A stretch of 64,000 nucleotides of DNA, taken from the IMG/VR virus record IMGVR_UViG_3300008262_000001. One strand, written 5' to 3'. Source of the stretch: a virus. Lineage: Duplodnaviria > Caudoviricetes. The notes beneath the pieces were generated by a model. The model did no database searches. It was not told the DNA's origin and saw nothing but the letters and a program-made list of their open reading frames with translations. Both the position numbers and the translations under genes were made by a program. This document shows positions 17,350-29,795 of the stretch, piece after piece (the stretch's first letter is position 1; each line of letters begins with the position of its first letter).

Positions 17350-18156
17350 ATGAGAAAGAAAAGAAGGGTTCAAACTTTCAAAAATTGGTTGTTAGCCAGA
17401 GATGCTGCAAGTAGAATTTCTACTAAGTCAAACTACACTTCATTTTTAGAAAGTTCTACAAATAGTGAAATTGACTACAAAGAGGCTATGAAAGTTTTTG
17501 ATCTTATCACAACTACCTCTGAATTTTATAAATTTCAAAACAACTTTGCAGACCTAGGAATTTGGAAAATCACTACTCCAGGTGAGATTAAAAGAATGCA
17601 GTTGTCTTTGAATAAAAAATACTTTAATTCCAATTTTTACAGATTCTTGAAATTGTTAGGGATAAAGGACTACACGTTTCCAGAACAAATCGATATTGAA
17701 ATAGATTCAAACTTAAGTCAAGTTATCCAAAATAAAGGAGTAAAAACTATAGAACCCACCTTAACTTTCTTGAAATTTGTAATCAAGCCAACATTTGATC
17801 TCAAGGAAATAAAACAAATTTCACAATTGATCATCTCATCTATAGTTGACTCATTTGATTTAAAATCTCCTTACAAAAAAGACATGCTTAAAAATTGGGT
17901 TGAAAAATCTGTTTTACAAGGTTCTAAATATGACAATCCTTTAAGAGATTTTGAAAGCGCTTTTGTTGATTGGATGAAAACTGCGCCTAAAGACGAAAGG
18001 GCAAATGCTTACTATGAGATTCTGACTAATGGTGATGAGTGGGATAAAGCAAACATTTCACAAATTAATTCATTGATGAAAGAATCTGGAATTGAAATTC
18101 CTAACAAAGAGGATATAGACTTAGGTTCTAATGTTTTAAAAAGGTTTACTTCTTAG
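17350..18156 (+). CDS. Hypothetical protein of the C-terminal-motif family
   Basis: Leader VQTFKNWLL; C-terminus DIDLGSNVLKRFTS; GATATATA at 17335. Confidence 0.75.
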   Translation: MRKKRRVQTFKNWLLARDAASRISTKSNYTSFLESSTNSEIDYKEAMKVFDLITTTSEFYKFQNNFADLGIWKITTPGEIKRMQLSLNKKYFNSNFYRFLKLLGIKDYTFPEQIDIEIDSNLSQVIQNKGVKTIEPTLTFLKFVIKPTFDLKEIKQISQLIISSIVDSFDLKSPYKKDMLKNWVEKSVLQGSKYDNPLRDFESAFVDWMKTAPKDERANAYYEILTNGDEWDKANISQINSLMKESGIEIPNKEDIDLGSNVLKRFTS

Positions 18157-19135
18157 TTTGTCTTTTTTTGTAGGAAACCTTTGTCTGACCGATTCTATCA
18201 AGAATAAAAACACCCAGATCTTTTTGATCATAGATCTGATAAGGGTTAAGCTTATCTTTTTTCTGATAGATAACTATCGATTCAATACCACTGAGGATAA
18301 AATACTGTTCTAATGCAATAGGTGTCTTGTCTTCTGTCCCAAGTAAAGATCCAACATAATCCAGAAGTTCTTTTTTCTGTATTCTTCTAGTTCTAGTTGG
18401 ATCTATGATTTCTGCTAATTCTAAACTTAACATACCTCTTCCCAACCAATTCCTAAGCGAATTTCGAACTATTGAATAATTAACCAGTTGTCTGGAGGTC
18501 TCAGGACTTATCTTGAAAATCATTTGATCCTCAGTCTTTAATTCAAGTTTCCAAATCTTGCTGTTTAATTCAATGTATCCCCTAGGACAAAGAAAAGATT
18601 CGCAAAAATGCTTCAATCCCTTTCTAAGATCGTTGTTATTTATGTCTGTTAGGCTATTTAAAAATCCACCCTGAACTAGGGCTTGAATAATAGTTCCAAG
18701 GTCGGTGAAAAAAGATGTTGCTTCAGTGAGCCTGAAATTTTCAGCATATGATTTCACCTCAATCTTCCTTTGACTCTGCTTAAATAAGATGTCAGGGTAT
18801 TTTTTTCTACCTGAGTATGAATTTTCAGCTATGAGAAGGCAGAGAATTTCACCCGGTCCTACGTATGAATGGCTCCAATCTGACACAAAAATAAGTGTTT
18901 TGTATCCTGATGTTTTTCTGGATATGACTTGATTGACATTTCTAATGGATTGAACAAACTCAAAGTGTCTATTCTTCTTAATAAAATCCCAAAAATCAAC
19001 GAATGATTTTTTATTTTCCTCAATGTGTGAGTGAAGAGAGGACAAAAATTTCTTACTTAAAACGGGACTAATAGATTTAGAAATAAAATAGTCCTCAAAC
19101 TCCTTAACGGATTGGTTTAAAACTTCTTGAACCAT
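18146..19135 (-). CDS. Putative PD-(D/E)XK nuclease-fold protein
   Basis: GPGE...YPDILF...IEVKSY. Confidence 0.5.
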   Translation of the reverse strand: MVQEVLNQSVKEFEDYFISKSISPVLSKKFLSSLHSHIEENKKSFVDFWDFIKKNRHFEFVQSIRNVNQVISRKTSGYKTLIFVSDWSHSYVGPGEILCLLIAENSYSGRKKYPDILFKQSQRKIEVKSYAENFRLTEATSFFTDLGTIIQALVQGGFLNSLTDINNNDLRKGLKHFCESFLCPRGYIELNSKIWKLELKTEDQMIFKISPETSRQLVNYSIVRNSLRNWLGRGMLSLELAEIIDPTRTRRIQKKELLDYVGSLLGTEDKTPIALEQYFILSGIESIVIYQKKDKLNPYQIYDQKDLGVFILDRIGQTKVSYKKRQTKK

Positions 19136-19172
19136 TCAAAGTCTTATACTGAGAAAGTTCCAATAAGTTACA

Positions 19173-20237
19173 TTAAGAGTTTCGATCCCACCAAGGTTTC
19201 TGGTAAACTGGTTTGATGTTTTTCCAAATTATTTTGGAATAATCTTTCCCGTCGATCATAGCAAATATCAAGGATCTATTCAAAGAAGTTTCTAGGTTTA
19301 AAATATCTGCTATTTCCTTCCTGGATAATTCTTTGTCCTTAATCCTCTTATCCATAATTTCAATAGCTCTATCCTCTCTGACTTGATATTGAATTTTCAA
19401 ATCCCGAATGGTATTTCTAACCCACTTATCAAATTCGTCAGGAACCTTTTCAAGCATCAAGTTTAAATCCTTACCTAAAGACAAAGACTCCCAGATATCA
19501 ACATTTGAAAAATTGGTTATGAGTTTATGAAGTCTAACATATTCTTCCCCTTTGATTTTGATTCTATCACCATTGGAAAATCTAATCACAAAACCTTCCT
19601 CATTATCTTTGATTATGCTTTTAAGTGATTGGTAATCTTTAACTCCATCAAATTTCTTGACAACTTTAAATCCGATGTTGTGAATCAAATTTTTAAGTCT
19701 TATATCTTTCTCTGGATCATGTAAATCAACTTCATAACCAGTTTGTGTATGAACCATTCCTAACATGACCAAATTTTCAAAGTCATATTCTACAACTATC
19801 CTATTTTCTTTGTATATAATTTCAAAAAGATAAGTGTAGTCTTTATGAAGCTTTTCATAATCGTATGCTTTTAATAAATCGGAAGCCTTAAGAGATTGGG
19901 TAGAAGTAAAAGATCCCCTAGATGCCAAAATCCATTGTCCCTCATAATGGAATAAAATTCCTAAAGAACCATCAAGTTTCTCATAAACATCAAAATCATC
20001 AGTGGGTGTAAATCTTGCTTCCTCTAGGTTAAAAAACTTGGGAAAAGTTCGGGCAAGTAAATTTCCTGACTGGTCTAAAACTGTTCCCCTCATGTTTAAG
20101 GTGATATGATCCCAATTTTCAGAAAACTGACATTCTCTAGAATAATTATAAATAGCTATAGGAAATAGAGGATGATCGTTTTTTTCTAACAGACCATCAT
20201 CAACGTACTTTTGAATTAAGTCAATATCATAGGTCAT
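19173..20237 (-). CDS. T4 Rnl1-like RNA ligase (start probably ATG 20237)
   Basis: FPKFFN, motif I YEKLDGSLG, FEIIY, EEGFVI, KIKGEEY. Confidence 0.88.
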   Translation of the reverse strand: MTYDIDLIQKYVDDGLLEKNDHPLFPIAIYNYSRECQFSENWDHITLNMRGTVLDQSGNLLARTFPKFFNLEEARFTPTDDFDVYEKLDGSLGILFHYEGQWILASRGSFTSTQSLKASDLLKAYDYEKLHKDYTYLFEIIYKENRIVVEYDFENLVMLGMVHTQTGYEVDLHDPEKDIRLKNLIHNIGFKVVKKFDGVKDYQSLKSIIKDNEEGFVIRFSNGDRIKIKGEEYVRLHKLITNFSNVDIWESLSLGKDLNLMLEKVPDEFDKWVRNTIRDLKIQYQVREDRAIEIMDKRIKDKELSRKEIADILNLETSLNRSLIFAMIDGKDYSKIIWKNIKPVYQKPWWDRNS

Positions 20238-28440: not shown

Positions 28441-28793
28441 ATTTCTAAAATATTTTTGTATTTGATTGCAAAGTCACCCCACTTATTGAAGAAAAGTTCA
28501 ACATAGGAGTTTATTCCCTCTTCATGTTTTTCTTCGTTGTTCTGACTCCTTATAACAGAATGGAGCTTAATAAAATCTTTGCTAAAAACTTCTCTTTCGC
28601 AAAGCAAGTCTTTTAATAATCTTCTTGTAGCCTCATTTGAATCTGAATAGAGTTTTAAAAATTCACCTGACGATTGACAATCTGAAATGTGAGCATCTAT
28701 TTTCATGATTCCATGATCAAAAGATTCAAAAGAACTTGTGGAAGCTGATGATACTAAACCCTCCCAATTGAAGAATCTTTTATTAAAAGACAT
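28437..28793 (-). CDS. Hypothetical protein
   Basis: 118-aa ORF with an ATGA overlap. Confidence 0.65.
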   Translation of the reverse strand: MSFNKRFFNWEGLVSSASTSSFESFDHGIMKIDAHISDCQSSGEFLKLYSDSNEATRRLLKDLLCEREVFSKDFIKLHSVIRSQNNEEKHEEGINSYVELFFNKWGDFAIKYKNILEI

Positions 28794-28838
28794 AAAGCAT
28801 TTTATTTTTATAGGAAAATAAAATCTTAAGTTTCAAAT

Positions 28839-29795
28839 CTAAGAACCGAAAGCACCAAACCTGGTAAGCATCTTAGCACCAGCTTTTAAATCAGGATCGA
28901 ATTGCCCTTCAGGATCAGGAAGAACAGCCGCTAACTCTGGATATTTTTGAATCAATTGTTTTGCTAATTCGTAGTACCTCGCAGATTTTTCTCCACTTAT
29001 TTGGCTTATAATAGGTGAAACCTCTTTTGATGGGATACCTGATTTTTTTAAAATTGATTTTAAAACGAGTTCTAAAATATAAGACAGTTTTTTTCTCAGT
29101 GTTTCCAAAGTGTATATTGGAACGTTGAGATCAGGATTACTTGTTAAGACCTGAGACCTTTCACCGAGTCTTCTTAAATATCCATTGGGGTATATTGCAA
29201 TTTGACCAAATTCCCCAGGAATTGTTAAAACCAAAACTCCTCTTTTGGCCTGTAAGGGAGTAGACGACACTTTAGTTCCAAACTTTTCGAGAAATTGAAA
29301 CTCTGGAGTATTTCTAAAATCAGAGTCATAGACATTAAAAAAATTGCTTTCCTTTCTAGATTTGGCTACCAGATCTGAAATTATTTCGCTTACCACATTG
29401 GTTTTTTTGTAATGTGGAATAAATCCATCAAAATCAAGCTCTCTAGCAATGATATTTATATCAAATCTTTCTCTAAGCATTTCAATTGTTTCACCAGCTT
29501 CAGAATTACGATCGTCACTTAAGTAAATTGTGTTGCTATTTGGTCCATACTCTATAAATGGAATCCTAAAAGTAAAGTCATCCCAATTGATGAGAATTGG
29601 ATTTCCTTCCAACTCATCATTTTCTTCGAGAGCAATATTCTTGAAATTTTGATCTCCAAAAAATTTAGCAAGGATTCTCGGTCCAACCAAACCATCAAGA
29701 TAGTCGATAACAGCCTTCGGAACATTTTGGAAACTAATTCCGCTATAAGATTTAGCTTCTTCGATAAATGACTCGAAAGATTTTAATTTTTTCAT
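28839..29795 (-). CDS. Hypothetical protein of the C-terminal-motif family
   Basis: Leader MKKLKSFESFIEE; C-terminus DLKAGAKMLTRFGAFGS. Confidence 0.8.
   Translation of the reverse strand: MKKLKSFESFIEEAKSYSGISFQNVPKAVIDYLDGLVGPRILAKFFGDQNFKNIALEENDELEGNPILINWDDFTFRIPFIEYGPNSNTIYLSDDRNSEAGETIEMLRERFDINIIARELDFDGFIPHYKKTNVVSEIISDLVAKSRKESNFFNVYDSDFRNTPEFQFLEKFGTKVSSTPLQAKRGVLVLTIPGEFGQIAIYPNGYLRRLGERSQVLTSNPDLNVPIYTLETLRKKLSYILELVLKSILKKSGIPSKEVSPIISQISGEKSARYYELAKQLIQKYPELAAVLPDPEGQFDPDLKAGAKMLTRFGAFGS

Follow-up and report, generated by a model that had tools for sequence, protein, structure and literature searches.

The stretch of DNA analysed here (IMG/VR record IMGVR_UViG_3300008262_000001, 64,000 nucleotides, referred to below as the window) is part of a large T4-like phage with about 33% G+C, and four of its genes code for proteins that end in similar short peptides, which we call the tag. 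An earlier sequence-only reading had described these proteins as a dispersed paralogue family with a common C-terminal signal and had proposed a sorting system for virion-packaged effectors. The window has no relatives among the INPHARED phages as searched by tblastn and megablast. Relatives were reached via the family of the gene starting at position 20466 and the conserved gene starting at 21106 (genes are named here by their first coordinate); seven of these, IMG/VR contigs of 103–248 kb (G1–G7), were examined in full. All records are uncultured contigs, 34–85% complete, and they make up about seven independent lineages, i.e. the window with L001, L007, G1/G2, G3, G4, G6 and G5/G7. The tagged genes, taken from the list of open reading frames (ORFs), their tags, located by pattern and profile, and the units in which they lie are the following.

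17335..17342, plus strand: late-promoter-like motif GATATATA, 15 nucleotides 5' of the start of the 17350 gene
17350..18156, plus strand: tagged gene of family 4, 268 amino acids (ORF list), with orthologues in L001, G1, G2, G3 and G6
18112..18153, plus strand: C-terminal tag DIDLGSNVLKRFTS of the 17350 gene (pattern and profile)
20442..20449, plus strand: late-promoter-like motif AATATATA before the three-gene unit 20466-21106-21708
20466..21071, plus strand: tagged gene of family 3, 201 amino acids, N-terminus MKKYQDFKKIQE (ORF list)
21018..21068, plus strand: C-terminal tag DTAMGASVIKRFGGFGA of the 20466 gene (pattern and profile)
21106..21711, plus strand: untagged middle gene of the same unit, 201 amino acids (ORF list)
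21708..22601, plus strand: tagged gene of family 2, 297 amino acids, with a leucine-rich-repeat (LRR)-like body (ORF list)
22554..22598, plus strand: C-terminal tag TDFSGARLIKRLGGF of the 21708 gene (pattern and profile)
28839..29795, minus strand: tagged gene of family 1, 318 amino acids, N-terminal leader MKKLKSFESFIEE (ORF list)
28842..28892, minus strand: C-terminal tag DLKAGAKMLTRFGAFGS of the 28839 gene (pattern and profile)
29792..30220, minus strand: DUF5856 gene, directly 5' of the 28839 gene and overlapping it by 4 nucleotides
30236..30243, minus strand: late-promoter-like motif GATATATA of the DUF5856-28839 unit

All four ORFs lie where they had been placed and end as had been read, i.e. 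in DIDLGSNVLKRFTS, DTAMGASVIKRFGGFGA, TDFSGARLIKRLGGF and DLKAGAKMLTRFGAFGS, respectively. The pattern G[AS]xx[LIVM][KT]R[FL] is found in 4 of the window's 522 stop-to-stop ORFs (at least 40 amino acids long), always 2–5 residues before the stop, and the entire six-frame translation holds 4 matches, whereas 200 shuffles gave 0.14 on average and never more than 2. A linker of the IP/LP type precedes the tag in all four window proteins, as had been noted, but is missing from some carrier families of the relatives; linkers before the tag contain much Pro, Asp and Glu. No Pfam or PHROG family includes any of the four proteins. The AlphaFold2 (AF2) model of the 28839 protein (predicted local distance difference test score, pLDDT, 76) shows the tag as a helix (residues 301–312) and has no clear match in the PDB by Foldseek, and that of the 20466 protein (pLDDT 69) likewise has no clear PDB fold match (best Z 5.0). 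ESM Atlas look-ups of two carrier bodies gave no named relatives.

An important question is what exactly these proteins have in common. Orthologues with identities down to about 30% keep the motif, whose broad consensus is D-x-x-K-G-[ASG]-x-[ILMV]-[LI]-x-[RK]-[FL]-G-x-[FI]; it often has a short run of acidic residues behind it. In the orthologues of the 28839 protein, i.e. the carrier family with the widest spread, conservation is best in two parts, a leader M-K-x-I-L-x-F-x-x-F-[IL]-N-E and a tail L-P-x-P-E-x-G-F-D-x-x-L-x-x-G-x-x-[LM]-[LI]-x-R-F-G-x-F, and tails are kept also in the orthologues of the 17350, 20466 and 21708 proteins. The internal domain that had been recognized in both the 20466 and the 28839 proteins is borne out by profile alignment (hhalign, 95% probability, E 3.5e-8, about 125 columns), with residues 67–201 of the former homologous to residues 185–318 of the latter. 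These two are thus true paralogues over a domain of about 125 residues, but the term paralogue family holds for this pair only. Of the LRR-like 21708 family, hhalign aligns only the last approximately 61 columns with the 28839 family (88% probability) and of a fifth family, which occurs in the relatives only, the last approximately 56 columns (74%). The 17350 family gives no C-terminal alignment (its top match is N-terminal, at 41% probability), and its likeness to the 28839 family consists of the short tag alone, as detected by pattern and profile. Judged from these alignments, the shared unit is a C-terminal module, which in its fullest form comprises two short helices, a Pro-rich linker and the 14-residue tag and in its smallest form the tag alone; in the 28839 protein the helix–linker–tag module takes up the last approximately 48 residues.

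An exhaustive profile search with the last 47 positions against 1.84 billion representative proteins returned 22 proteins at E <= 0.001, and those inspected belong to the 28839 and 20466 families, plus two repeat proteins. In the representative library, P0014 (1188 amino acids) has at least 11 tandem GFDPxIxxGVxVxNPLGxFTL units that mimic the linker–tag part of the profile; this likeness is probably due to chance or convergence, because P0014 has no homologue in the clade. A literature search with the motif strings turned up no paper mentioning the tag, and this instance of a tag is new in the sense that its motif was met in no paper found.

How widely the tag is distributed was determined with a profile of 14 columns, built from 18 tags and run against 2,392 ORFs of at least 50 amino acids from the window, G1–G7 and three short loci. 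Matches scoring 6 or more numbered 52, all but two of which (50) are no more than 10 residues away from the C-terminus; the positions of weaker matches are scattered. With the tag removed, the carriers fall into at least 16 groups that are not linked by BLAST (E <= 1e-4), and representatives of these groups have no Pfam or PHROG family. Together with the restriction of the hhalign likeness to protein ends, this agrees with the earlier suggestion of a portable C-terminal peptide on different bodies. The window has at least 4 tags, G1 about 10, G3 about 9 and G7 14–17, numbers that are minima because the contigs are incomplete. G8, G11 and G12, which are more distantly related contigs, lack the tag, and as far as this sequence comparison reaches, it is confined to this phage clade. 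In G7, three early proteins (108046–108588, 109778–110260 and 115932–116297, all in L066) carry the motif at the N-terminus, in the form M-x-N-x-Q-E-E-N-x-R-K-G-x-x-M-L-x-x-F-G-V-I. As a few G7 copies are N-terminal or internal, a free C-terminus is not strictly needed.

Are the copies within one genome alike because they are copied from each other or because each is maintained? Under the tag, codons vary freely among the carriers of a single genome, with Leu, Arg, Gly and Ser each represented by 3–6 different codons. This scrambling rules out gene conversion as the source of the likeness within genomes and means that each gene keeps the peptide independently, by selection at the level of the protein. 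At the same time, the tags of one genome change in step. In G3, the R that 37 of 42 tags carry in the other lineages is replaced by K or N in all 8 tags (Fisher p = 2e-6), and this loss of Arg extends to the orthologues of all four window families. The first hydrophobic position is Met in 14 of 16 tags in G6 and G5/G7, compared with 2 of 34 elsewhere (p = 1e-8). An amino-acid bias as the cause can be ruled out, since the proteome-wide use of R, K and M is equal across all genomes. If the tags had a common reader with which they co-evolve, many independent genes of a lineage would undergo such substitutions in parallel, whereas a generic physical property does not predict them; in-step change counts in favour of a shared reader.

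When in the infection cycle are these proteins made? In the region of 15–31 kb of the window, the sequence RATATATA occurs at only four places, three of which precede the units of the four tagged genes. The motif of the 20466 unit, AATATATA, is also kept in L007, G1, G3, G4, G6 and G7, and in G1 a late motif precedes 7 of 9 carriers but 45 of 241 other genes (p = 3e-4). Most carriers, by visual inspection, also begin with a leader of the T4 type, and the relatives code for a gp23-type capsid protein and a gp21-type protease. Of the four leaders in the window that had been likened to capsid-targeting sequences, three stand up, as they end in the T4-type [LIV]-x-E (FIEE in the 28839, KIQE in the 20466 and RLNE in the 21708 protein); in the 28839 family (19 sequences) F7 and E13 of the leader are invariant and F10 is nearly so. 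The 17350 family, however, has a different N-terminus, an invariant basic FKNWLLARDxASRIS that is unlike the F-x-x-F-x-N-E leaders of the other carriers.

Several further carriers lie in early regions of G1, G2 and G7 and have no leader. In the early regions of G1 (161–190 kb, L023–L024) and G7 (83–115 kb, L065–L066), the conserved element tagaattttctaTATTAGCTAnGTAAaCCAATtaaa stands 5' of nearly every small ORF and looks like a host-type -7 box with a fixed leader sequence. Because the tag is thus found on early leaderless genes and in non-C-terminal copies, packaging cannot be its common denominator, and the proposed sorting system for virion-packaged effectors does not hold as it was put forward, given these early carriers and the N-terminal or internal copies in one genome. 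What late proteins with a head-loading leader, which would be injected, and early proteins would share, according to this inferred timing, is that both are present early in infection, and for this reason we would look for a partner inside the infected cell and not in the capsid.

The genes next to the carriers show some further features. The DUF5856 and 28839 genes are adjacent in L001 and L045 and, by coordinates, also in G4–G7. The start of the 21708 gene overlaps the stop of the upstream gene 21106-21711. This untagged middle gene is 80–86% identical in the relatives, compared with about 35–62% for its tagged neighbours, and its product opens with a hydrophobic, membrane-helix-like stretch. 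The 3' end of the 17350 gene overlaps the convergent gene 18146-19135 by 11 nucleotides.

The motif, its position at the protein end, its spread over unrelated bodies, its maintenance by selection on the protein and its in-step change are all matters of observation. As their explanation we favour, tentatively and at somewhat less than even odds, a portable docking tag that is read by one shared partner. The tag is a peptide of about 14 residues, predicted to be helical, at the end of the protein and after an acidic or proline-rich linker, which in several families is preceded by a helical spacer of about 40 residues. In one clade of freshwater T4-like jumbo phages, this peptide has been placed on many unrelated ORFans, and a single partner would bind it and so bring all carriers to the same place or machine. 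Both the binding and the existence of a single receptor are what we infer here. The carriers are of two classes: early proteins, and late ones whose head-loading leaders of the T4 type would see them injected along with the DNA. With presence early in infection as the common denominator, the partner would more likely be a cytoplasmic host hub or an early phage protein than the capsid. In its fullest version, which we hold to be less likely than not, this would be an undescribed address-tag system. A single receptor, be it a hub of the host or a phage protein that evolves fast, would capture at least 16 unrelated families of ORFan effectors comprising both injected head cargo and early proteins, with the 14-residue tag co-evolving with this receptor genome-wide.

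Several points weigh against a docking tag with a shared partner. The search for a partner yielded none; the in-step evidence comes from few independent lineages, and the Met state may trace to a single branch; and the peptide also resembles a lipid-binding amphipathic helix. Moreover, in L112, a contig of a near-identical phage (Joint Genome Institute contig Ga0114341_10000211), a deletion of approximately 210 bp relative to the window (about 28640–28880) takes out the last 36 codons of the 28839 gene, i.e. linker and tag, as well as the spacer and the beginning of the following gene. Either such a tag-less variant exists in nature, or the contig was assembled wrongly here. As this one metagenome contig deletes the tag, the copy in the 28839 gene may be dispensable.

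Candidates for the partner were sought among the phage's own products. Apart from the genes already listed, the window codes for pieces of a family B DNA polymerase, ribonucleotide reductase, topoisomerase II, DnaJ, a MoxR/VWA pair, a ClpP-like protease and a transfer-messenger RNA (tmRNA). The ClpP-like protease (25408-26136, minus strand) retains the Ser-His-Asp pattern intact and has additional segments at both termini, and homologues are present in L001, G3 and G4. As a receptor to which the tag would dock in the manner of an IGF loop it was set aside, since no homologue was found in the tag-bearing G1, G2, G5, G6 and G7; the 17350 family, which is without the G-x-F-G end, also disfavours this type of docking. 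DUF5856 was set aside as well, since G8 and G11, which lack the tag, have it and no copy was found in G3, which has tags. Phyletic profiling for a clade-specific receptor left 29 candidates, including the phage DnaJ, among which the contigs are too incomplete to decide.

A further candidate is a 255-amino-acid ORF (33110-33877, minus strand) between the topoisomerase and polymerase pieces, which is 83–96% identical across the lineages. It has no Pfam or PDB sequence match, and its feature neighbours in the ESM Atlas include gp45 and PCNA sliding-clamp clusters; it is probably the phage's sliding clamp. A complex prediction of this protein with the tag module gave a score of 0.02, which, as the run was made without controls, carries no weight either way as to binding. 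The family B polymerase is split, and its C-terminal piece (30257-31240, minus strand) ends in SPNLLLVRSLF; this tail is nearly invariant in all nine related loci (SPNLLLV[RK][SA]LF) and is probably the clamp-binding tail of the polymerase.

The main rival to a docking tag with a protein receptor is membrane targeting, i.e. that the tag is a short amphipathic helix which would take its carriers to the host inner membrane, lying in the plane of the latter and needing no protein receptor, like the membrane-targeting sequences (MTS) of MinD and FtsA. We consider this unlikely, with perhaps one chance in five. The validated C-terminal MTS of E. coli MinD is KGFLKRLFGG (PMC5471200; on MTS biology see PMC6803595), and the order of residues in the tag matches it, with K-G, two hydrophobic residues, K-R, a hydrophobic residue and then Gly. 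In the best 11-residue windows of the tags, the mean hydrophobic moment is 0.53 (0.55 in MinD) and the mean hydrophobicity 0.36 (0.40 in MinD), the charge of the core window averages +2, and a HeliQuest-type score exceeds 0.68 in 93% of tags compared with 36% of other C-termini. The tag is helical in the AF2 models, and the copies at N-termini in G7 would fit too, since helices of this kind function whether they are N- or C-terminal. The two peptides have in common a length of approximately 10 residues at the terminus, a boundary of Gly, a preceding flexible stretch and a similar moment and hydrophobicity. They differ in that in the phage tag the Gly is separated from the hydrophobic pair by one more residue, the flanks are often acidic and the sequence varies in step within genomes. 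With the flanks counted, net charge is 0 or below in 23 of 56 tags, and several end in acidic runs, e.g. DEDED, GDDED or DDDAQG. The mean hydrophobic moment of the tags is reached by 35% of other C-termini, and Gly and Arg/Lys are more strictly kept than amphipathicity alone demands. A lipid surface provides no reason for the joint loss of Arg or gain of Met throughout a genome.

By contrast with a partner in the infected cell, the tag could serve capsid loading or virion sorting, i.e. its docking site could be the inner surface of the capsid protein (HK97 fold), the scaffold or the portal, with the carriers as packaged cargo; parallels would be encapsulin targeting peptides or, in HK97, the protease with its C-terminal tail. 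This we regard as improbable, at about one chance in eight. The late promoter motif and the T4-type [LIV]-x-E leader on most carriers, as well as the gp23-type capsid protein and gp21-type protease in the relatives, would be in line with it. Encapsulin targeting peptides (PLTVGSLRRGG; consensus DGSLGIGSLKG; PMC7925596) are likewise C-terminal and linker-borne, with a G-S-L plus Arg/Lys core, and like the tag they are portable peptides behind a flexible linker on unrelated cargo; the shell that encapsulin peptides target has the HK97 fold, which is also the fold of phage capsids (PMC7925596). Unlike encapsulin cargo genes, however, the phage carrier genes are not located beside the capsid gene: in G1 they are found at 139–220 kb and the capsid gene at 20.3–22.0 kb, so that more than 100 kb separate them from the head module. 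Some carriers are early, and a head-loading leader is already present at the N-terminus of most. The tag is moreover present on early genes without a leader. The T4 capsid targeting sequence is itself a short terminal tag common to unrelated phage proteins, and most carriers of our tag also have such a leader. It is N-terminal and removed by gp21, whereas the tag described here is C-terminal, has another sequence and no [LI]-x-E site and occurs also on leaderless proteins. In T4, the N-terminal leader alone suffices for packaging, and a second signal therefore looks redundant.

Less probable still, with odds that we would put at roughly one in a dozen, is a C-terminal degron for the timed removal of early-acting proteins by Lon, ClpXP or the phage ClpP-like protease. 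A C-terminal peptide that is exposed behind a linker, hydrophobic and basic, and shared by early-acting proteins would suit this purpose, and the window codes for both a ClpP-like protease (25408-26136) and tmRNA. The ClpP-like gene, however, was not found in G1, G2, G5, G6 and G7, which all have many tags; the tag encoded by the tmRNA, EEAELLLAA, is unrelated to the motif; and degrons rarely keep a consensus of 14 residues.

Finally, that the carriers ride on the phage sliding clamp, as T4 gp43, gp33 and gp55 do via their C-termini, is hardly credible: T4 sets a precedent of interchangeable clamp-binding C-termini on unstructured linkers (PMC2988020), a probable clamp is encoded in the window (33110-33877) and the polymerase tail NLLLVRSLF has two hydrophobic residues, any residue, Arg and a C-terminal Phe like the tag, but this tail is not matched by the tag profile and is nearly invariant, keeping its Arg in G3, where all tags have lost it, the clamp candidate is 83–96% identical across lineages, and the T4 tails are hydrophobic and acidic (PMC2988020) whereas the phage tags are hydrophobic and basic at the core. 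As an analogy the T4 tails are nevertheless instructive, being short interchangeable C-terminal peptides behind variable unstructured linkers on functionally different proteins that are all read by one hub (PMC2988020); they occur on replication and transcription proteins, the phage tags on ORFans.

Large uncultured phages consist mostly of genes of no known function, and the tag groups from 4 to about 17 of these per genome into one functional set. A single 14-residue peptide thus provides one experimental handle for all carriers, in pull-downs, localization and competition experiments, and, being small and portable, it may likewise be of use as a tag in engineering. Under either reading, i.e. 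a protein partner or a membrane, the in-step change between genomes can be used as a co-variation signal to find the partner. If the partner is the membrane, the tag would define a membrane-directed set of proteins; if it is a host hub, the tag would define, with the injected proteins, a takeover toolkit. Should an address-tag system indeed operate in these phages, their early takeover toolkit would become readable from sequence, and its common target could be fished with one peptide.

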